From Bacilli bacterium (GTDB lineage Bacteria > Bacillota_I > Bacilli_A > RF39 > UBA660), in NCBI GenBank assembly GCA_017612805.1, contig JAGAFD010000005.1, forward strand, positions 10,130-74,129: a stretch of 64,000 bases of DNA, written 5' to 3'. Positions 31,275 through 57,704 of this stretch are shown here, one piece after another. The translations under genes were made by a program, and so were the position numbers. Each line of letters starts with the position of its first letter. The stretch's first letter is position 1. The notes under the pieces are model-generated. The model had not been told where the DNA came from. It made no database searches and was given only the letters and a program-made list of their open reading frames with translations.

Positions 31275-31351
31275 GTCTCCGTAGCTCAGCTGGATAGAGC
31301 ATACGCCTTCTAAGCGTACGGTCGCGCGTTCGAATCGCGCCGGGGACACCA
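31275..31351 (+). tRNA. tRNA-Arg (anticodon TCT), CCA encoded
   Basis: Cloverleaf with acceptor GTCTCCG/CGGGGAC and a GC-rich T-arm (GTCGCGCGTTCGAATCGCGCC). The anticodon loop is CTTCTAA. Confidence 0.85.
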
Positions 31352-43312: not shown

Positions 43313-44347
43313 TTAAAAATCTATAACATGATTATATAATTGATATTTTTTATTTGAATAATCTATTTTATTATCTAAAGCCAATCTATATAATACGAAA
43401 CACTTAGGATATTTTTCCTCATTATCAATGTTATAACAATCATTATTAACAATACTCATATAATATTCGTCAGATACCATCCAATTTAATGATTGTTTAT
43501 CAGCTTTATCTTCAAATTTTTCGTTTTCAAAAGATATTAAATTTGTGGCTTTAGCCATATTAAAATCACTCTTACAATGTGCCAATTCATGTAATAAAGC
43601 AAAATATATATCTGCAATTCTCTTATACTTTCGGGTTAAATAAATAGCAGGAGTTTCCTTATTGACTTTAAATGCGCCTCGAATCTTAGATCCTGGTAAA
43701 TCATCTTGAATTACGAGTTGAATTCCATTTTTATTAAACTTTTCAATTAATTTTTTTTCATCAAACAAATCATTCTTAGCATTATCTTTTATAAATTCCA
43801 CTAAAGAATCTATATTACTTTTATCATATTGGCCAAGAACCTGATTACTTGCAATTCTATAACATCTCTCTAGCCATATCATAAGCATTTCTGGTTTATC
43901 ATTCTTACTTTTATATAATATATTTTTATCTAATTTATACAAACTATCAGGTGCTGAAACCCTTAAATATTTAAGAATATCCATTAATGATGTCATTTTA
44001 TTATCTACATGAACAAATTTTATCCAATTACTTTTTAATAGCTCTCTATATGAAAATTTATTTAAATATTGAGTAAGCGTTATCTCATTCTTATTCAAGA
44101 AATTTATAATTTCACATTCCATTCTATAATTTTCTTCTATTTTTAAAATATACTCAGCTGGGATATCAGTAACGATGGAAATAGATTGAATTATTGAAGA
44201 AGATAATTCAATGTTACCTGATAATAAATCAATTAAATGCTTAGGGGAAATGCCGATTCTTGCAGCAAATTCCTTATTAGATATATTGTGCTCATTTAAA
44301 TAATCTTTCAAAATATCAACAAAACGCACATGTGCCATTTCTATCAC
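43313..44347 (-). CDS. HTH (XRE) + ImmA/IrrE-family (COG2856) zinc metallopeptidase fusion, HigA-like antitoxin
   Basis: An N-terminal HTH, NKEFAARIGISPKHLIDLLSGN, and an HEXXH at FALLHELAHC. The start is either GTG at 44347 or ATG at 44338. Confidence 0.65.
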   Translation of the reverse strand: MIEMAHVRFVDILKDYLNEHNISNKEFAARIGISPKHLIDLLSGNIELSSSIIQSISIVTDIPAEYILKIEENYRMECEIINFLNKNEITLTQYLNKFSYRELLKSNWIKFVHVDNKMTSLMDILKYLRVSAPDSLYKLDKNILYKSKNDKPEMLMIWLERCYRIASNQVLGQYDKSNIDSLVEFIKDNAKNDLFDEKKLIEKFNKNGIQLVIQDDLPGSKIRGAFKVNKETPAIYLTRKYKRIADIYFALLHELAHCKSDFNMAKATNLISFENEKFEDKADKQSLNWMVSDEYYMSIVNNDCYNIDNEEKYPKCFVLYRLALDNKIDYSNKKYQLYNHVIDF

Positions 44348-44358
44348 CCTTAATCTTT

Positions 44359-44691
44359 TTAAATATTTCTTAAATATCTTTTAAAATCTTCATAATGTTC
44401 ATCAGAAATATATTCGAGTCTAATAGAATAATTATCAGGGCAAGAAAACAAAAGCCTTAATTTTCCACTTTTACTATTCTTATCAATAGAAAATCTATAA
44501 TAACCTGTCAAATCACCTTTCAATTCCTCAAAACCATATTGATCAGATATTACATGGTTTTTTAAATCTTTAAAATCATGTACAACCTCCATATGACTTA
44601 ACACTTTATTTAGTTTATCCATAGCATCATAATTTTTCTTGATTTTTTTTAAGCTATTTTTATACCCAGTTGTAAGTTCAGAAATAATCAT
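44359..44691 (-). CDS. HigB-like (RelE/ParE superfamily) toxin
   Basis: 110 aa. ELKGDLTGYYRFSIDKNSKSGKLRLLF parallels HigB HPLKGDREGYWSITVRANWRITFQF. It sits 11 nt upstream of the HTH-peptidase gene. Confidence 0.55.
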   Translation of the reverse strand: MIISELTTGYKNSLKKIKKNYDAMDKLNKVLSHMEVVHDFKDLKNHVISDQYGFEELKGDLTGYYRFSIDKNSKSGKLRLLFSCPDNYSIRLEYISDEHYEDFKRYLRNI

Positions 44692-44931: not shown

Positions 44932-46806
44932 CTATATTTTTGATTTGAAATATTTTTGTAATTCAAGATCTGTACAATAAACATAACAACCTTTCAGACC
45001 TCTAGTCATTAATGTTCTATATGTATTTTTTATTATAGAGTCTGCTATTCTATTTGCTTCTTCTTGTCCCTTTTCTAAAGCTATTTTATTTATGCCTTTT
45101 AATGATTGATCTGTTTTTGCTCTTTTTGTATAATCTGTAACTATTTGACCATTTTCATACCTCATATCATCGCCAATAATAACACCAACATAATCAAACT
45201 CTAATCCTTGGCATGTATGAATACATCCAGCTTCATTAACAGACTCTGGATCAATAGCATATGTTTGAGAATTAGCTAAGTTCCAACTCATTTCAAAATT
45301 ATATTCAGGTATTACAATATCATGAACAGTAGTCTTAGCTTTACCTTCACTAATCCAGTCCCAACAGTAACCTGCAACTATTCTAGATTTATTATTTATT
45401 GTATTTTTTTCTTCAATAGTTCTTCTCATTTCATTTGGATCATCAAAAACTTTAAAATCATAATCAAATCCATCGATATCAAAATTTGCAGTTTCTCTTA
45501 TTTCTAATAGATTATCTAACCAGGCGATGTAGCCATCTGAACCATTGCATCTAAATTGACTGTCTAATTCATAAATATAAATACCAGCATCTAATTCTCT
45601 TGCATATTGCTTTATTAAATCTTCACTACCAATATCTTTTAGTGTTACTTTTTGATTTTCATCTATAAAGAATATTGAAAATTTAGAAGCATTAATTATT
45701 TCTTTAATTTGGTTTTCACCTTTATTTTGAAATAATCCAGATTTAGCATTTAATCGATGTGCCTCATCCACTACTAATACATCCAATTTATTACTTTCTT
45801 CATTAACAAAATTACCAGACCCTTGAAATAAATGATTAATATAAGTTTGAGTAAAATCTCCTCTTAATTTAGCTGCAAATACATTTCTAGGTGCAGCATT
45901 TTTTGTTACATAAAAGCATGTCATATTTCTATTATTAAACTCAACTAATAAATTAATGGCCAATACTGACTTACCAGTTCCTGGTCCACCTCTAACAATC
46001 ATTACATTTTTCTTGTTATTAGCAACAGTATCAATTGCATTACTTATTGCATATTCATAAATAACTTTTTGATCATCAATCATATAAAATTCTTTATTAC
46101 CATGTAACATTTGTGATAAAGAATCTTGAAGCATCTTTGATGGTCTAATTCTTCCATGATCAATTTCATATAGAATACTTCCATCATCACCACTTGATAT
46201 ATATTTTTTAATAAAGTCTCTTAATTTAATAACATCATTATGTCCAAATAAAGGAGCCTTATCAGTATATTCTTTATAATTATCAGATAATAATGTATCA
46301 TCATTTTCAAAATAATAATTATGCAAATAAGCACAAGGTATAACATTAATGTCTTTTAGTTGAACAGATTCATTATAATCTTTAATTAAGTTAGCATAAG
46401 TCATGGCTTGGTATGAAGGATGGTTTACATCTCTAAGTCCTCCACCCACAAATGTATTAACCTTATAAATACCATCTAGGTAAGCAACTTCAGTAGCTTT
46501 ATCCCATTGCTTTAGCTCAATTATAATTACATTAGATTTGTCATTGTTAAATCCAGACATCATAAAATCTATTCTACATCCAGTTGGTGGAATATTATAT
46601 TCAATAGCTATACCAGTATTATCCGGTATTTCATTATCACTTAATACACCTCTCATATATTGCATAGAATTCTTCCAAGAATTAAATTCGGGTGAACTTG
46701 GTCTTCTTTTAATCTTTTCAATATATTTATTTCTTATCTTATCAGCTATTATTCCTAAATCTACATCATTAATAAATCCTGATTTTATCCCTTCATATAC
46801 TAACAT
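44932..46806 (-). CDS. DUF2075-type protein with an N-terminal PD-(D/E)xK nuclease-like domain and an SF1-helicase-like ATPase
   Basis: The N-terminus reads ...RIDFMM...VIIIELKQWD (D...ExK). Walker A is RGGPGTGKS and Walker B is DVLVVDEAHRL. The helicase motif is CQGLEFDYVGVI. Confidence 0.65.
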   Translation of the reverse strand: MLVYEGIKSGFINDVDLGIIADKIRNKYIEKIKRRPSSPEFNSWKNSMQYMRGVLSDNEIPDNTGIAIEYNIPPTGCRIDFMMSGFNNDKSNVIIIELKQWDKATEVAYLDGIYKVNTFVGGGLRDVNHPSYQAMTYANLIKDYNESVQLKDINVIPCAYLHNYYFENDDTLLSDNYKEYTDKAPLFGHNDVIKLRDFIKKYISSGDDGSILYEIDHGRIRPSKMLQDSLSQMLHGNKEFYMIDDQKVIYEYAISNAIDTVANNKKNVMIVRGGPGTGKSVLAINLLVEFNNRNMTCFYVTKNAAPRNVFAAKLRGDFTQTYINHLFQGSGNFVNEESNKLDVLVVDEAHRLNAKSGLFQNKGENQIKEIINASKFSIFFIDENQKVTLKDIGSEDLIKQYARELDAGIYIYELDSQFRCNGSDGYIAWLDNLLEIRETANFDIDGFDYDFKVFDDPNEMRRTIEEKNTINNKSRIVAGYCWDWISEGKAKTTVHDIVIPEYNFEMSWNLANSQTYAIDPESVNEAGCIHTCQGLEFDYVGVIIGDDMRYENGQIVTDYTKRAKTDQSLKGINKIALEKGQEEANRIADSIIKNTYRTLMTRGLKGCYVYCTDLELQKYFKSKI

Positions 46807-46816
46807 ACTAACCTCA

Positions 46817-47698
46817 TTACATATTACTTAATTCATTAGCAATAGATTTTCTTCTTTTTTCTCGTTCTAGATTTGCTAATTTTTGAATAAGTATTTCCTC
46901 TAAAGCACATTTTAATATTGGAAATATTTCTTGACATTCTTCTTCTGATAAATTATGTATTCCATCACTCACCCTAGCATAAATTATATTAAACCCATTC
47001 TCAAATAATAAGGATGGTAAATATTTTTTTAATTTTTTTACTCGATCTTCGATACGATAATGCAAAAATTCATCTTCAGAAAAATCTAAATTATCTTTAT
47101 TGTCATTGAAACAATCTATTAATAATTTTTCAAATATTCTTCTTAAATATATTAAAGCGCCAATACATGTATTAAAACTATATAATGAACATGCTTTCTT
47201 ATAATATCCAGCATATTCATTCCCTAATTCCTTTATAAAAGGCTTATTGTTTATTTCTTCATTTAAATCATAAATAGATGGATATTGTCCTATTTTCAAT
47301 ATCCTATCATTTGATAAAACTTTAAAATCAACAATTAAAGAATGCCCACAATCACCACAACCTATTATCCTAAAATAATCTTTACCTCTCAATTCATCAG
47401 CTGCTGATGCTTGTTTTCCTTGAATACTCATACTTATCCATGCATAAGAAGAATTATGTAATGTGAATATTCTTCTTTGTTTACATAAATTACAATAACA
47501 TTCAATTTTTAAATTGTTATACGGAAAAAACTTATAATTTGCAACCTTCGTATTAACAGACATTGGCTTATATAATGGATATAATAACATTTTTTCATTA
47601 ATAAATGAATTTGTCATGTCATTAGCGGTTATATTATTTCTATTGTGGAAATCTAATTCTTGTATTGTTATCATTTCAATATTATTATCTCTATTCAT
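46817..47698 (-). CDS. Zn-ribbon (CxC-x2-C...C-x2-C) protein with DUF4145-like helical C-terminal domain
   Basis: Cysteine cluster CYCNLC...CGDCGH. The alpha-helical C-terminus resembles DUF4145. GAGGTG RBS. Confidence 0.45.
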   Translation of the reverse strand: MNRDNNIEMITIQELDFHNRNNITANDMTNSFINEKMLLYPLYKPMSVNTKVANYKFFPYNNLKIECYCNLCKQRRIFTLHNSSYAWISMSIQGKQASAADELRGKDYFRIIGCGDCGHSLIVDFKVLSNDRILKIGQYPSIYDLNEEINNKPFIKELGNEYAGYYKKACSLYSFNTCIGALIYLRRIFEKLLIDCFNDNKDNLDFSEDEFLHYRIEDRVKKLKKYLPSLLFENGFNIIYARVSDGIHNLSEEECQEIFPILKCALEEILIQKLANLEREKRRKSIANELSNM

Positions 47699-47710
47699 AA
47701 AACACCTCGA

Positions 47711-48025
47711 TTATAATTTTGTATATTTTGTACTTTTTCCTTTTGATTTTTCAACAGGATATTTTTTTGCTGTCTTTTCCATTTTATCTAAAACTATTTG
47801 TTTCGGATCTACTCCTAATTTATCCGCCATCAATATGCAATAATTTATTACATCAGCAAGTTCTTCTTTAACTTCATCTAAATCATATTCATTATTCCAT
47901 TGAAAACATTCTAATAATTCACCTGCTTCAATGCAAATACTCTTTGCTAAATTTTCAGGTGAATGAAATTGATCCCAATCACGTTCTTTAGTAAATTCGA
48001 CAACCTTTTCCCTTAATTCTTGCAT
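47711..48025 (-). CDS. MazG-like all-alpha NTP pyrophosphohydrolase
   Basis: 104 aa with EAGELLE and ELADVINYCILMADKLGVD motifs. AGGTGG RBS. Confidence 0.65.
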   Translation of the reverse strand: MQELREKVVEFTKERDWDQFHSPENLAKSICIEAGELLECFQWNNEYDLDEVKEELADVINYCILMADKLGVDPKQIVLDKMEKTAKKYPVEKSKGKSTKYTKL

Positions 48026-48067: not shown

Positions 48068-48095
48068 AAATAAAAAACGTTCATATTATGAACGT
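48068..48095 (-). terminator. intrinsic terminator after the Mrr-cat gene
   Basis: AACGTTCATAATATGAACGTT followed by UUUUUAUUUUU on the minus strand. Confidence 0.6.
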
Positions 48096-48476
48096 TTATT
48101 TCATTACTTCAATATATTCTTCAATTTTTTCATTATCAATAATAGTTATATTTAATCTAGCTGCTGCTTCTTTAGCATTAACACTAACTTCATCATTACT
48201 AATGATAATACCAAAACCAACTTTTTCTCTTTCCATATCTTGTACAGTTTCTTCTATTTCGCGCATTGTTATTTTTTTATTTAAATAAGTTTGAACTGTA
48301 TACATAACATTATCTTTTTTAGCTAACATATCATTATCATTAGTAGGGTCATCATCAGATAATCTAGCATCATCTAACGTTACTGGAAAATAACCATGTT
48401 TTAATAATACTGCTTGAATATAATTTCTAAATTCCCTACTATCTATAAAGTTATCAATAATCCCTATATCTTCCAT
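48096..48476 (-). CDS. stand-alone Mrr-cat-like restriction endonuclease domain protein
   Basis: 126 aa. DNDMLAKKDNVMYTVQT...GFGIIISNDEVSVNAKEAAARLNITIIDNEKIEEY matches the Mrr catalytic-domain pattern. Confidence 0.55.
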   Translation of the reverse strand: MEDIGIIDNFIDSREFRNYIQAVLLKHGYFPVTLDDARLSDDDPTNDNDMLAKKDNVMYTVQTYLNKKITMREIEETVQDMEREKVGFGIIISNDEVSVNAKEAAARLNITIIDNEKIEEYIEVMK

Positions 48477-48534
48477 ATCTTAATCACCTATAATGATTAT
48501 AGCATAATTCGTTATTATTCAATGTTTATATGAT

Positions 48535-49281
48535 TTATTTTTTTGTATATTTACACTTTGGATAATTAGAACATCCAATAAATTTTCCATACTTACTTTT
48601 TCTTTCAACTAATTGTCCACCACATTTTGGGCATTTATTAGGATCTTTATCTATTACATTTTTTCTAATATTTCTAATATGTTCCTTTTTTATCTTTTTA
48701 TCAATGATATTATTTCTATTAATTATATTAACAATTAAACTTACATCATCAATAATAACATCTTTGTATGATAATATTTTATCAACAATAGTATCGTATC
48801 TTACTAACTCTCCATCATGTTGAATCTTTAAAGTTGCTTTACTAGGAATACATACAATATTATATATTTTTGATTCATCAACATTTAATAATTCTGATAG
48901 TGCTTTTACGTGACCATAGTTCTGTCTAATTGGATTAGAATAATAATACTTATTCTTTCCAACATGTCTTATCCAATATTTATCATATTTATTACCAGTA
49001 ATAAAACCATTATATTGTTTAGTTTCTACAGAAAATATACCATATGGTGAAACTATCACATGATCTATTTGATGAGTATTACCATTCGTTTTTATAAATA
49101 CATCATTTATAACTATATATTTATCTTTTGGTAATTTTTTTAGCGCTTGTTTTGTCCAAAGCTCACCAAACCAGCCAATTATTTTTTTAGAATAAATAAC
49201 TAATAATATATCGATTATAATAAATAAGATAACAAATGGATTAGTTAAAAAAGTAATTATTACTTTAATAAAATCAGCCAT
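48535..49281 (-). CDS. NERD-domain nuclease-related protein with C-terminal topoisomerase-type C4 zinc finger
   Basis: An N-terminal TM, a NERD core (GELWTKQALKKL...HQIDHVIVSPYGIFSVETKQYNG), and a C-terminus CPKCGGQLVERKSKYGKFIGCSNYPKC. Confidence 0.6.
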   Translation of the reverse strand: MADFIKVIITFLTNPFVILFIIIDILLVIYSKKIIGWFGELWTKQALKKLPKDKYIVINDVFIKTNGNTHQIDHVIVSPYGIFSVETKQYNGFITGNKYDKYWIRHVGKNKYYYSNPIRQNYGHVKALSELLNVDESKIYNIVCIPSKATLKIQHDGELVRYDTIVDKILSYKDVIIDDVSLIVNIINRNNIIDKKIKKEHIRNIRKNVIDKDPNKCPKCGGQLVERKSKYGKFIGCSNYPKCKYTKK

Positions 49282-49289
49282 ATAATTTC

Positions 49290-49712
49290 CTACTCTCTAC
49301 CATCAACTAACAATATTGTTATATTAACACATACTATTAAACCTTTTAAAATAAAGTATGGAATAAGTATTAAGAATTTATTATTTTCAAATAAATATCT
49401 AAATGTCATTATATGTAATACTAAATAACCAGTTCCGGTCATTGTCATACCTAATACAATAAAACCTTTAGCAGCAAAATTATAATATAAAATACTAGCT
49501 ATTAAACTTAAAAAATCTGGAGTCATAAATGTAAAGCAAAGGGAACATAACATTAAATTAATTGGTAAATAAGCAAATGTTATCGCACTAGTTGCGCTAA
49601 ATAATTTTAATGAAATAAATACTATATATAATATTGCTGCTATACAATAAATAATGTTAATAATATTTAATATTAAACTAACTTTACCTAAAGTAGTTTT
49701 TTTCTTACGCAT
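49290..49712 (-). CDS. small polytopic membrane protein
   Basis: 140 aa, four hydrophobic helices. Lies 8 nt upstream of the NERD gene. Confidence 0.4.
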   Translation of the reverse strand: MRKKKTTLGKVSLILNIINIIYCIAAILYIVFISLKLFSATSAITFAYLPINLMLCSLCFTFMTPDFLSLIASILYYNFAAKGFIVLGMTMTGTGYLVLHIMTFRYLFENNKFLILIPYFILKGLIVCVNITILLVDGRE

Positions 49713-49801
49713 CCTAAATCACCTAAATCAATTATATCATAAAAATTATTATTGTATTTTCAAATATTTTTGTTATCATATATACTTAAGGAAGTGAAGA
49801 A

Positions 49802-50464
49802 ATGGAAAAAGCAGGAATTATTACTGATATGATAATAAGAGGAAATGCCTCTGCATTAAATGCACTAAAAATTTTAAATGCTTATGAACGTTTTGATAAA
49901 ATAATTAAAACTTTTTATCGTGGACTTGGTTTTATTATCACTTATGATTATAGTGATGCCAAAGCGGATTATTACGGACAATATACGCATGATTTAAAAA
50001 TTTATTTTGATCATGTATTAGTATTTGATAGTAAAACTAATACTTATATTCCAGGGCCATGGGAAGAATTACTTAGTAAAATGGTAGAAAACAAAAAAAT
50101 AACTAATAAAAAAGGTAAAGAATATGAAACATCTTACGAACGCGCTTTAAAAATTGATACGGAAATTGAAAAGATTATTGCTAATGATAAATCTGAAGAA
50201 TGTTATGTAAGACTTAATAAAGATATTACCGTTTATAAAAATCCTAAAAGCGAAAATCCGTATGTAGTTTCAGCACATAACGATTTTGTATACATCTGTA
50301 ATAAGTATCATGAAATCCAACAAATTAAAGAAAGTGGATGGGAAGAAGTAGTTTTAAAATACATGGCTGGCGTTGAAGCTGAAAAATTAGATGAATTACA
50401 TAAAAGACAAAAAACATTAGTTCATGATTATATGGATGCATTTAAAGGAAAGGAAAAGAAATAA
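49802..50464 (+). CDS. hypothetical protein, paralogue A (two internal repeats of a GPWE-containing module)
   Basis: 220 aa. The repeats are ...IYFDHVLVFDSKTNTYIPGPWEELL... and ...FVYICNKYHEIQQIKESGWEEVV... AAGGAAG RBS. Confidence 0.55.
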   Translation: MEKAGIITDMIIRGNASALNALKILNAYERFDKIIKTFYRGLGFIITYDYSDAKADYYGQYTHDLKIYFDHVLVFDSKTNTYIPGPWEELLSKMVENKKITNKKGKEYETSYERALKIDTEIEKIIANDKSEECYVRLNKDITVYKNPKSENPYVVSAHNDFVYICNKYHEIQQIKESGWEEVVLKYMAGVEAEKLDELHKRQKTLVHDYMDAFKGKEKK

Positions 50465-51156
50465 TGTTTAAAAAGAAGAATAAACTTAGTAAGGAAACCA
50501 TTGCTTTTCTTGAACAAAATATACCAGCAGTAGAAGATGCCATTAAAATCTTAAAAGAAGTTGGTATTGAAAGTGAAAGAGATCCAAGAGTTAGGAATAA
50601 TAAAGAGATTCAATATAATGGTTCTGGTTTTAATATCCATATTTATGGTGGAAAAGATACTATCGATGCAAAAGACCCGCTATATTTAACTATTAGTTTT
50701 GAACATGTAGTAGTATATAATGCATGGTACCTAAAATATGTTGAAGGCCCTTGGGAAACATTAATTAAAGAGTTAGCAAAGCGTCCTACAATAGCGCAAA
50801 ACCTTCAAGATAAATATAACGAAAATAAAGCGCGTGCCGAAATTATTGATTATGAAATAAGAGATATTATGCAATATCTCACACTTTCTCGTATTAAATC
50901 ACTTGAATTAAAAGACTATAATATGATAATTTATTATAACTACAATTGTGATGATAAAAGATACGTAATAGAGTATCAAGGCGAAGATGTATATGTAGCT
51001 AATAGCTATCATGAAATTCAAACTCTAACTGAAGGCCCTTGGGAAGCCATTTTAATGAATTATAGAAAAAATGAAGAAGCTAAAGCTTATGCCGAAAAGC
51101 ATAAAGTTCAACTAGAACAAGTTGATAAATACATGCAAATATTAAAAAATAGCTGA
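50464..51156 (+). CDS. hypothetical protein, paralogue B (two internal repeats of a GPWE-containing module)
   Basis: 230 aa. The repeats are ...ISFEHVVVYNAWYLKYVEGPWETLI... and ...VYVANSYHEIQTLTEGPWEAIL... Its start overlaps the stop of paralogue A (TAATG). Confidence 0.55.
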   Translation: MFKKKNKLSKETIAFLEQNIPAVEDAIKILKEVGIESERDPRVRNNKEIQYNGSGFNIHIYGGKDTIDAKDPLYLTISFEHVVVYNAWYLKYVEGPWETLIKELAKRPTIAQNLQDKYNENKARAEIIDYEIRDIMQYLTLSRIKSLELKDYNMIIYYNYNCDDKRYVIEYQGEDVYVANSYHEIQTLTEGPWEAILMNYRKNEEAKAYAEKHKVQLEQVDKYMQILKNS

Positions 51157-51915: not shown

Positions 51916-52677
51916 TTATTTTTTATCAGTTAATTTTTTAGTTTGACCTTTATAGATATCACGCGATTTTTTTAAAATATCTTGAAGTTCTTCCGGATAA
52001 ATACTATTTACTTTATTAATTAATTCTTCATCTATTTCAATATCTAATAATCTTATTCCTTTTTCTTCTTTTAAGAATATCGCATCTTCAATGTAGATAA
52101 CATTTGCATACGAAGAAAGGGCATTATCAAACCTAACGCTATTGGCATAACCATTAATAATATTACGATAAATAACGCCTTTAAATTCTCTTAAATCATC
52201 AAAGCTTTGGAATATTGCATGTTTAGCAAAAAAAGCATTAGCAATAATCACAATATCACTTATATGTGGAGCTTTCTTTTCATCTTTAACTTGTTTATCA
52301 TCCCACACTAAGATATTATTAACTGCAAATTCACGGTGACCTTTTTTATCAAGATCATAAGCTTCTAAAATCCATTCTTCATGAGCATGCCATTCAGATT
52401 TTTTATATTCTAATTTAATTGGAATAATATTTCTTTTAGCAGTAATTCCTTCCCAATTTTTATAAGTAATCGTAACTACTTTTTTACGCATATTAGCTAG
52501 TTTTTTAGCATCCTCATCACTTAATAGCATATTTTGTACTAAACCACTTTCGGATGTCGTTGCCACATGATAATATAGCGTTTCATCTGAATCATCAAAT
52601 TCTTTAAAACAAAATGAACCTAAATCGTCGCCTCTTTGTTCTCCAGAAATTACATTTAATCTTTTAATCTCACCCAT
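51916..52677 (-). CDS. hypothetical protein
   Basis: 253-aa ORF. Confidence 0.45.
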   Translation of the reverse strand: MGEIKRLNVISGEQRGDDLGSFCFKEFDDSDETLYYHVATTSESGLVQNMLLSDEDAKKLANMRKKVVTITYKNWEGITAKRNIIPIKLEYKKSEWHAHEEWILEAYDLDKKGHREFAVNNILVWDDKQVKDEKKAPHISDIVIIANAFFAKHAIFQSFDDLREFKGVIYRNIINGYANSVRFDNALSSYANVIYIEDAIFLKEEKGIRLLDIEIDEELINKVNSIYPEELQDILKKSRDIYKGQTKKLTDKK

Positions 52678-54940: not shown

Positions 54941-55090
54941 AAAAAATAAAAACAAAAACAAAAAATGGAGAGCTAACGCTCTCCTTCAGGGGGTTTTGGT
55001 TGAACACTCACATTAGTAAAACGGTGAGTCTTCAAGCATGATGTGTATCATGCTATAATCATTATATGATATCAAACTAATTCTTGTCAA
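54941..55090 (-). promoter_or_regulatory. promoter + ~95-nt structured leader + intrinsic terminator upstream of the 491-aa gene (candidate attenuator/riboswitch)
   Basis: On the minus strand: TTGACA (55085-55090), an 18-nt spacer, TATAAT (55061-55066). Then hairpins GCATGAT-acac-ATCATGC and ACTCAC-N12-GTGAGT, then CCCCCUGAAGG. The terminator is GGAGAGCGTTAGCTCTCC (54967-54984) followed by a U-rich tract. Confidence 0.5.
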
Positions 55091-55733: not shown

Positions 55734-57704
55734 TTAAGAAATAATTTTCAAACTATTAATGATATTATTAACAACATCATCATTATTTAATAATGCTTCA
55801 TTACTATCAACAATTGCTTGTTTTAAAATTTTAAAATCAGTTCTTAAATCCGCAATTTTAAAATGCATGTCACCACTTTGGTTAGTTCCGAAAAGGTCAC
55901 CTTCTCTTCTTATTTTGAAATCCATTTCGGATATATAAAAACCATCATTAGATTCTTCTAATACCGTTAATCTTTCTGTCTTTTTATCACTAATTAAAAA
56001 GCAATATGATTTAATATCACTTCTTCCAACTCTTCCTCTTAACTGATGAAGCGTTGAAAGACCAAAACGTTCGGCATTATAAATAATCATTACGGATGCC
56101 GTATCAGAATCAATTCCTACTTCAATAACAGTTGTTGATATTAAAATATCAATCTTTTTATTCATAAAATCCGTAATGATTAAATCTTTTTCATTATTTT
56201 TTAATTTACCATGTAAAATAGCAATCTTTTTATTAGGAAATGCTTTTAAATACTTTTCTTTTAATAATTTAACACTATTTAATTCATCATCTTCTTCATT
56301 TTCAATTGAAGGTGCTACGACATAAACTTGATGATTTAGTTCTAATTCTTCTTTTACTTTAATCAAAACCGTTTTAATATCATCTTCTTTAATAACTTGG
56401 GTTTTAATTTCACTACGATTACCTGGTTTAACTTTAATAATAGAAGTATCCATATCACCAAATATCGTCATGGCATAAGTTCTTGGAATTGGCGTTGCGG
56501 TAGTATAAAGCAAATCAGGTTTAACCCCTTTATTAATTAAACATTTTCTTGCATTAACCCCAAAACGATGTTGTTCATCAGTAATTACTAAACCTAAATT
56601 ATTAAATGATAATTCATCATTTAATAAAGCATGGGTACCTACAATAATATCAATCTTATTATTTTTTAAATCTTCATAAATACTTAGCTTTTCTTTTTTA
56701 GTTAATTTACCAACAATTAATTTAATATTAAGATCTTTAGGCATTACTTTTAACATATTTTGATAATGTTGAATAGCTAAGATTTCCGTTGGTGCCATTA
56801 GGGTTCCTTGATAACCACCTAAATAATTAATATATAAAGCAATAATCGCCACAATTGTTTTACCACTACCAACATCACCCATTAAAAGACGATTCATCCT
56901 TTGCCCATTAGTTAAATCATTTAAAATATCATTAACCGCTTTATTTTGATCTTCGGTTAATAAAAAAGGTAGATTATTCATAAATTCATTTAACTTATCA
57001 ACATCAATAACTCTTTTTAAACCATTATCTTTTTTATTCATTCTTTTTAAATAATTAATCTTAGTTGCAAAAGTAAATAACTCTTCATAAATTAATCTTA
57101 ACCTAGCTTTTTTTAAATCATCAATATTTTGCGGATTATGAATAATATTTAAAGCTTCCTTTTTGTTAATAAATTGATACTTATTAACTAAGTTAAGAGG
57201 AATATTATCAAGGTAAGAATAATTAGTAGTTAAAGCTTCCATAATATAACTATGTAAGTTCTTTTGTTTAACTTCTCTTATTACATGATAAACGGGAATA
57301 ATGGTTTCTTTTTTGATAACATTAAAACTAATATCATTAACAATAAATTGATTTTTTAATTTATCGTATTTACCCGTTAAAGTTAAATCGCTATTTAACT
57401 TAATATTATTTTTAAGAAAGTGTCGGTTAAAGATAACCGCTTTCATAATTTTTTTATTACTATTAATATCAAATGATAAGATATTCATATTCTTTCTAAT
57501 AAAGCTTAATTTAACTGGTGATATAACTTTCGCATTAATGGTAATAGCATTATTAAAATCATTACAATTTAAGATATTTATTGGTCTTAAAATATTATAA
57601 CGAAATGGATAATAATTAACTAAATCATCAACATTATTAATATTTAATTTATTTAAATAACTAATACTTTTAGTACCAATTCCTTTAATGTCTTTTAAAT
57701 CCAT
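55734..57704 (-). CDS. recG: ATP-dependent DNA helicase RecG
   Basis: 656 aa. The N-terminus is MDLKDIKGIGTKS. Walker A is GDVGSGKT, and DEQHRFG and the helicase C-motifs are present. Confidence 0.9.
   Translation of the reverse strand: MDLKDIKGIGTKSISYLNKLNINNVDDLVNYYPFRYNILRPINILNCNDFNNAITINAKVISPVKLSFIRKNMNILSFDINSNKKIMKAVIFNRHFLKNNIKLNSDLTLTGKYDKLKNQFIVNDISFNVIKKETIIPVYHVIREVKQKNLHSYIMEALTTNYSYLDNIPLNLVNKYQFINKKEALNIIHNPQNIDDLKKARLRLIYEELFTFATKINYLKRMNKKDNGLKRVIDVDKLNEFMNNLPFLLTEDQNKAVNDILNDLTNGQRMNRLLMGDVGSGKTIVAIIALYINYLGGYQGTLMAPTEILAIQHYQNMLKVMPKDLNIKLIVGKLTKKEKLSIYEDLKNNKIDIIVGTHALLNDELSFNNLGLVITDEQHRFGVNARKCLINKGVKPDLLYTTATPIPRTYAMTIFGDMDTSIIKVKPGNRSEIKTQVIKEDDIKTVLIKVKEELELNHQVYVVAPSIENEEDDELNSVKLLKEKYLKAFPNKKIAILHGKLKNNEKDLIITDFMNKKIDILISTTVIEVGIDSDTASVMIIYNAERFGLSTLHQLRGRVGRSDIKSYCFLISDKKTERLTVLEESNDGFYISEMDFKIRREGDLFGTNQSGDMHFKIADLRTDFKILKQAIVDSNEALLNNDDVVNNIINSLKIIS

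Follow-up and report, generated by a model that had tools for sequence, protein, structure and literature searches.

Three adjacent minus-strand genes in the genome of an uncultured member of the Bacilli raise the question of whether they act together as one defence module. The genes lie on contig JAGAFD010000005.1, within the stretch of 64,000 nucleotides that was analysed (the window; about 25% GC, with a flat profile), and they encode a small protein with four transmembrane (TM) segments (the 4TM protein), a NERD nuclease-related protein ending in a topoisomerase-type zinc ribbon (the NERD/Zn-ribbon protein), and a protein with a stand-alone Mrr fold (the Mrr-like protein). A preliminary description of the locus had proposed that the three form an abortive-infection or toxin module. 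From the comparison with relatives it appears fairly likely that the trio consists of two or perhaps three unconnected occupants of a variable defence island: an autonomous NERD nuclease, a 4TM leader open reading frame (ORF), and a degenerate Mrr-fold protein.

Linkage and expression of the three genes

The make-up of the locus proved to be as described. Three minus-strand ORFs were present, and Pfam hidden Markov models (HMMs) matched each of the expected domains: Mrr_cat (PF04471; E = 1.4e-10, residues 11-120 of 126), NERD (PF08378; 105.6 bits against a cut-off of 22.1, E = 2.6e-30, model positions 2-111 of 111), and Zn_ribbon_Top1 (PF01396; 60.1 bits against a cut-off of 32, E = 1.8e-16). 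The hydropathy scan placed four TM segments in the 4TM protein (four to five across the scans) and one N-terminal TM segment in the NERD/Zn-ribbon protein, in agreement with the membrane anchor that had been suggested. The trio holds no methyltransferase or ATPase, and no ATPase adjoins it (ORF list, Pfam). No trio protein had a full-length match to a system component in PADLOC-DB v2, and neither the Mrr-like nor the 4TM protein was matched there.

The three genes are individually scattered among relatives, an outcome that the preliminary description had itself set against a single module. Exact copies of the trio proteins are confined to one metagenomic population with identical context and are therefore uninformative on linkage. 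More distant relatives were sampled as about 20 contexts of small Mrr genes and about 23 of NERD/Zn-ribbon genes, mostly from gut and rumen metagenome assemblies; the latter comprised 15 reference-genome loci, three metagenome contexts, six annotated plasmid or phage records, and one further locus, L038. A NERD gene (detected with the NERD-family HMM) was adjacent to the small Mrr gene in 1 of the ~20 contexts, a small Mrr gene was adjacent to the NERD gene in 1 of the ~23, and both counts refer to L038. The closest relatives of the two genes are unlinked, and no homologue of the 4TM protein stood beside any NERD relative. Additionally, the 4TM protein matched only itself (99-100%) among 5.8 billion proteins and could be placed in no family of Pfam, PADLOC, NCBIfam or PHROGs; its ORF is an ORFan specific to the strain, not a conserved partner. 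As a three-gene module the locus matters little, as it falls apart when set against its relatives.

Putative transcription signals, identified as consensus matches, were consistent with this separation. A compact cassette (TGnTATAAT-N6-AGGTG-N6/7-ATG), found upstream of just 5 of the 71 genes in the window, precedes the 4TM gene, the Mrr-like gene, and the MazG-like gene that opens the adjacent MazG-like/helicase operon. Before the 4TM gene the signals run TTGAAA, an extended -10 (TGATATAAT), 6 nt, AGGTGA, 7 nt, and ATG, and before the Mrr-like gene an extended -10 (TGCTATAAT), 6 nt, AGGTGA, 7 nt, and ATG. A strong intrinsic terminator directly 3' of the Mrr-like gene parts the trio from the MazG-like/helicase operon. 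The putative signals suggest three starts, for a coupled 4TM-NERD unit, for the Mrr-like gene, and for the operon, and the three cassettes combined with the single terminator suggest that the trio itself is made up of two transcription units, 4TM-NERD and Mrr-like. The terminator scan showed no such signal between the NERD and Mrr-like genes, so transcription starting at the upstream promoter may also run on from the NERD gene into the Mrr-like gene.

A 29-nt promoter-like element with a ATGCTATAATCATTATA core, located upstream of the Mrr-like gene, recurs elsewhere in the window as an inverted copy of 83% identity between a 491-aa gene and a DUF975 gene.

In the proposed arrangement, the NERD/Zn-ribbon gene would be the functional core, its family being large, tightly conserved and horizontally mobile, and the 4TM ORF would be a strain-specific leader gene, translationally coupled to it. 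The Mrr-like gene, with its own putative promoter and conserved in the lineage across many unrelated contexts, would stand here by juxtaposition.

Several points weigh against treating the genes as independent residents. The trio is tightly packed on one strand, with gaps of 8 nt between the 4TM and NERD genes and 58 nt between the NERD and Mrr-like genes and with a single terminator, which is an operon-like layout. The adjacency in L038 has the same order and an 8-nt gap, with a NERD protein 30% identical to that of the window, and the probability of its arising by chance is roughly 0.02-0.1; in another locus, L026, a small Mrr gene lies 4.6 kb from the NERD gene. Finally, the nuclease activity and defence role of the NERD/Zn-ribbon protein, like its topology and DNA target, are inferred.

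The NERD/Zn-ribbon protein and its genomic contexts

The NERD/Zn-ribbon protein is organized as an N-terminal TM helix (residues ~5-30), a NERD PD-(D/E)xK domain (E40, D73, E86-x-K88), a helical linker, and a C-terminal C4 ribbon (C217, C220, C237, C243) that aligns to the zinc ribbons of E. coli Top1. In 125 homologues the residues E40, D73 and E86-x-K88 show no variation or a conservation of at least 98%; the four ribbon cysteines are invariant, and the E/D/ExK site, the zinc cysteines and the N-terminal membrane helix are kept together in the 120 relatives examined. The family returned 2077 matches at E<=1e-10, of which the best 120 are 66-80% identical and all of about 250 aa; at this level of identity the protein is related to more than 100 database clusters. 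Annotated copies on plasmids of Clostridioides, Synechocystis, Vibrio and Pseudomonas and in C. difficile phages are 30-41% identical, and in PHROGs the protein corresponds to phrog_21557 (6.3e-42), a phage family with no known function; the viral contig scan gave no confirmed match for the tight NERD subfamily.

Compared with named families and systems, the window protein is a typical representative of the NERD + Zn_ribbon_Top1 family, with which it shares both domains, the length of about 250 aa, the E/D/ExK site, and the C4 ribbon, and whose members NCBI names 'NERD domain-containing protein'. Defence islands are enriched in NERD proteins, and a pair made up of an ABC ATPase and a NERD protein, HEC-02, has been validated as a defence system (10.1101/2024.01.29.577857); ZwsA, a NERD protein of several domains, works on its own as an RNA endonuclease against RNA phages (10.64898/2026.04.06.716636). 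HEC-02 resembles the window locus in its NERD domain with a (D/E/Q)xK motif and in its defence-island location, but the window has no adjacent ABC ATPase. ZwsA has the architecture VHS-DUF647-NERD-S4, whereas the window protein carries no VHS, S4 or other RNA-binding domain. BREX PglW and MADS MAD6 share the NERD module, but the window protein has no kinase. PADLOC matches to PglW/MkoA were confined to the NERD region (1e-8 to 6e-3), as were the scores of the curated models (MAD6, 37 bits against a cut-off of 460; PglW, 30 against 990). In contrast to all four, the window protein combines its NERD domain with a membrane anchor and a zinc ribbon of the Top1 type. Literature searches found no experimental study of the TM-NERD-Zn-ribbon architecture and nothing on NERD with zf-C4_Topoisom.

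The neighbours of the NERD/Zn-ribbon gene across its contexts are mostly defence or mobile-element genes, and the partners change between loci. The gene adjoins ApeA-HEPN in two loci (L019 and L028), stands with Type III Res, T5orf172 and ThsA-Macro in L024 and with GmrSD and a Gabija-like OLD/UvrD pair in L073, and lies near Cas13c on a Cetobacterium plasmid and near AIPR on Synechocystis pSYSX. OLD-like ATPases occur 3' of it in L068 and L073 and there resemble Gabija/OLD genes, and a 715-aa protein of L068 matches PDC-S41 (7e-245). The gene is also found on plasmids and phage-plasmids, and some of its contexts are housekeeping (SecA, racemase, superoxide dismutase). The defence-island setting of the preliminary description was thereby upheld. 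A conserved membrane partner was also considered and rejected, the sole multi-TM neighbour (L029) being a ZIP zinc transporter.

Combined, the TM-NERD-Zn-ribbon family has more than 2000 close relatives, is highly conserved and mobile across phyla, and is consistently located in defence islands. The NERD gene is a candidate single-gene defence nuclease and its role is probably defensive. The single N-terminal helix would tether the nuclease and zinc ribbon to the membrane, probably on the cytoplasmic side, the ribbon may hold single-stranded or distorted DNA as in topoisomerase I, and the protein would act alone at the membrane by cutting foreign DNA as it enters or replicates.

The most recurrent partner of the NERD/Zn-ribbon gene is a superfamily 1 (SF1) helicase directly upstream, three times accompanied by a MazG-like gene, and the MazG-like pyrophosphohydrolase and SLFN-g3/DUF2075 helicase are the sole neighbour families that recur in at least 3 of the first 15 NERD loci. 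The alternative that survives best, though it is unlikely, is that the NERD protein belongs with the MazG-like/helicase operon in a 'split' nuclease-helicase system, in which a variable helicase would sense or unwind foreign nucleic acid and the MazG-like and NERD proteins would be constant effectors. In three loci (L020, L026 and L068/69) the MazG-like, helicase and NERD genes follow one another in that order, closely spaced and on the same strand, and the window has this set rearranged (NERD, Mrr-like, terminator, MazG-like, 293-aa ORF, helicase). Identity among the MazG-like proteins of the window and these loci is 81-88%; the helicases are ~27-30% identical to that of the window, and their N-terminal nuclease differs (PD-(D/E)xK-like or GIY-YIG). 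Other helicases lie directly upstream of the NERD gene as well, namely UvrD in L070-72 and another on an Alicyclobacillus plasmid, and fusions of NERD to UvrD-type helicases are common among Pfam architectures. The recurring helicase-then-NERD order resembles a nuclease-helicase divided over two genes; in Nhi the nuclease and helicase form one polypeptide that acts alone.

This linkage is loosened by the ~17 of 23 NERD contexts that have no adjacent helicase, by a B. cereus plasmid on which MazG-like is followed by DUF2075 (46% identity) without NERD, and by the terminator and Mrr-like gene that separate the NERD gene from the operon in the window. Furthermore, proteins with an N-terminal nuclease and DUF2075 form single-gene systems, established or candidate (Nhi, Nhi-like, PDC-S41), so the co-location of NERD with MazG-like and helicase genes may mirror defence-island clustering alone. 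Together with AbiO, such proteins (N-terminal nuclease and DUF2075/SLFN-g3 SF1 helicase in a single gene) resemble the third gene of the operon and not the trio; because the window helicase already has its own N-terminal nuclease-like domain, an extra NERD nuclease is not obviously required.

Apart from the NERD gene, a MazG-like gene followed by an SLFN-g3/DUF2075 helicase gene was seen in all four of the non-syntenic metagenome-assembled loci examined (L020 2785-4817; L026 2564-4655; L068 3956-5983; L082 4001-6160). No PADLOC model matches the MazG-like protein, and the literature searches found nothing on MazG with DUF2075; the two genes, with a swapping N-terminal nuclease, may constitute a distinct two-gene defence system.

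A broader formulation, which is offered tentatively and judged quite unlikely, would make the NERD/Zn-ribbon family an unrecognised, widespread single-gene membrane defence nuclease acting on entering DNA, with lineage-specific partners that can be recruited. Such partners would be a dead Mrr-fold inhibitor or pseudo-subunit (window and L038) and the MazG-like + DUF2075 pair (window, L020, L026 and L068).

The small Mrr-fold family and the remaining alternatives

The preliminary description had presented the Mrr-like protein as an orphan Mrr nuclease; the Mrr_cat assignment stood, and an active nuclease became doubtful, as two of the four catalytic residues are lost in all members of the family. 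In the window protein F-R replaces F-E and Q-T-Y replaces Q-x-K, so that D49 and Q62 alone are kept, and the family as a whole carries F-R and Q-T-(Y/F) where 13 canonical Mrr_cat proteins carry F-E and Q-C-K. The replacement of the helix-1 Glu by Arg and of the catalytic Lys by Tyr or Phe is invariant across 18 members. A fold search returned AF1548, AspBHI and MspJI as structural neighbours, a similarity to the Pfam family 'NACHT-associated inactive restriction endonuclease 1' was weak (0.0023, below the cut-off), and a PDB sequence search with the small Mrr profile gave nothing useful. Compared with Mrr and Type IV endonucleases, the protein shares the fold but not the catalytic E...D...(E/Q)xK, it has no N-terminal modified-DNA recognition domain, as Mrr_cat fills nearly its whole length, and its relatives occur in housekeeping-like contexts. 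Because Glu and Lys are lost in every member and the family is uniformly acidic (pI 4.1-5.0), the small Mrr-fold protein is most likely not a nuclease, judging from its residues.

The family is narrow, comprising 23 clusters of 120-130 aa, and a profile search of 1.84 billion proteins yielded 14 representatives at E<=1e-30; there was no confirmed viral contig match for the family and no plasmid match for the protein. Its contexts are diverse. The closest relative (L014, 67% identity) lies between genes for a thioredoxin-reductase-like (TrxB-like) protein and DUF362, in Solobacterium-like contigs the gene follows an EF-G-like gene and precedes 2-hydroxyacid dehydrogenase and LarA, in L007/8 it is beside a Type I restriction-modification system, and in 29 metagenome loci the neighbours include NrdG-like, TIR-WD40, CotF/recG, GpmI and YgjV. 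A hidden NERD gene among the unannotated neighbours was considered and discarded, since Pfam assigned these to ankyrin, VWA, reverse transcriptase, DUF362, Zn-ribbon membrane and ICMT-like proteins, among others.

Among the partners of the small Mrr family, a YgjV-type membrane protein recurs most often. A protein of ~177 aa with five to six TM segments, matching Imp-YgjV (Pfam, 1.3e-25), is encoded directly 3' of the small Mrr gene in five loci (L037 5402-5932; L039 5424-5957; L041 2269-2808; L042 5402-5590; L046 529-1062), and L050 holds a single in-frame ORF (1118-2062) that matches both Imp-YgjV (6.8e-25) and Mrr_cat (2.3e-10). This pairing and fusion hint at a non-nuclease role for the family, a clean case of a restriction-endonuclease fold whose active site has been lost and which was joined at least once to a YgjV-type protein. 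There is no YgjV-like gene in the window, and a relationship of the 4TM protein to the YgjV type was ruled out (hmmsearch E = 0.58).

Two other arrangements of small Mrr genes were noted. In L054-L058, a related set of five metagenome loci, the gene is at most one gene away from recG, in convergent orientation and with a CotF-like gene before it (for example, L054 701-1063 and 1912-3936), and recG of the window lies ~7 kb from the Mrr-like gene; this suggests that the small Mrr gene is a backbone gene of the lineage, conserved in the vicinity of recG, and that what lies between the two is island cargo. In L059 (3414-5393) a 659-aa ORF joins a phosphoglycerate mutase-like region, recognised by eye, in frame with a divergent small Mrr-fold domain, and may be a true fusion or the result of a stop codon lost in assembly.

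The adjacency in L038 keeps alive, at low probability, a facultative two-gene link between the NERD and small Mrr genes. As a very unlikely alternative, the two would form a facultative two-component toxin or abortive-infection pair to which the 4TM protein is optional, the dead, acidic PD-(D/E)xK-fold protein binding the basic NERD nuclease as an antitoxin-like inhibitor or inactive dimer partner and being released on infection. A pair of this kind is difficult to reconcile with the at least 19 of ~20 other small Mrr contexts that have no NERD gene and the at least 21 of ~23 NERD contexts that have no small Mrr gene, or with closest relatives that are unlinked. The small Mrr gene also appears to have its own promoter, its recurrent YgjV-type partner indicates another role, and the orphan status of the 4TM protein speaks against its having a part in the pair.

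A reading without any defence role, in which the NERD/Zn-ribbon protein would serve to maintain a mobile element or to process DNA (in integration, excision, or plasmid or phage replication, for example) and the other two genes would be incidental, is highly improbable: integrases or transposases lie within two genes of the NERD gene in 7 of the ~23 contexts, on plasmids and C. difficile phage-plasmids it sits among replication and recombination genes (dut, ruvC, integrase), and its product matches the phage family given above, but recognised defence genes predominate in many contexts, integrases flank defence islands anyway, and NERD has been validated in defence in other architectures (10.1101/2024.01.29.577857; 10.64898/2026.04.06.716636).

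Features of the surrounding region

The coordinates of the trio, its signals and its neighbours are given in the table. Near the trio no mobile-element boundaries were recognised, as there was no Rfam family, no convincing flanking direct repeat, and no tRNA, the only tRNA of the window being at 31275.

Table. Features of the trio and its surroundings, in window positions
Feature	Positions	Strand	Description and source
Putative promoter of 4TM-NERD unit	49731-49763	-	consensus match (sequence reading, promoter scan)
4TM gene	49290-49712	-	140 aa, 4-5 TM, basic, pI 9.4 (ORF list, TM scan)
NERD/Zn-ribbon gene	48535-49281	-	248 aa (ORF list, Pfam)
Spacer with putative Mrr-like promoter	48477-48534	-	58 nt, consensus match
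Promoter-like element	48480-48508	-	29 nt
Mrr-like gene	48096-48476	-	126 aa, acidic, pI 4.4, stand-alone Mrr fold
Intrinsic terminator	48075-48097	-	10-bp stem, 3-nt loop, T-run (terminator scan)
MazG-like gene	47711-48025	-	first gene of adjacent operon, 44932-48025 (Pfam, PADLOC)
293-aa ORF	46817-47698	-	second gene of adjacent operon, uncharacterised protein
N-terminal-nuclease + SLFN-g3/DUF2075 helicase gene	44932-46806	-	third gene of adjacent operon (Pfam, PADLOC)
110-aa ORF	44359-44691	-	without family
344-aa HTH gene	43313-44347	-	PADLOC PD-Lambda-2_B match
220-aa ORF	49802-50464	+	first of tandem pair
230-aa ORF	50464-51156	+	second of tandem pair
253-aa gene	51916-52677	-	phrog_3715 match
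Copy of promoter-like element	55047-55075	+	
recG	55734-57704		

The pair of genes that the preliminary description called a toxin-antitoxin module consists of the 110-aa ORF and, directly downstream, the 344-aa helix-turn-helix (HTH) gene. The product of the latter matches the PADLOC model PD-Lambda-2_B (3.1e-23); a region resembling an ImmA/IrrE-type peptidase was read by eye, and Pfam confirmed the HTH domains only.

Divergent from the 4TM gene are the tandem 220- and 230-aa ORFs, which have no significant match in Pfam, PADLOC, NCBIfam or PHROGs and look paralogous by eye, with no alignment made. Beyond them, the 253-aa gene is flanked by a gene for an S-adenosylmethionine-dependent methyltransferase-like protein and an alpha/beta hydrolase gene; for its product the precomputed Pfam table gives a faint WYL annotation, and in PHROGs it matches phrog_3715 (5.8e-19), a phage family whose function is unknown.

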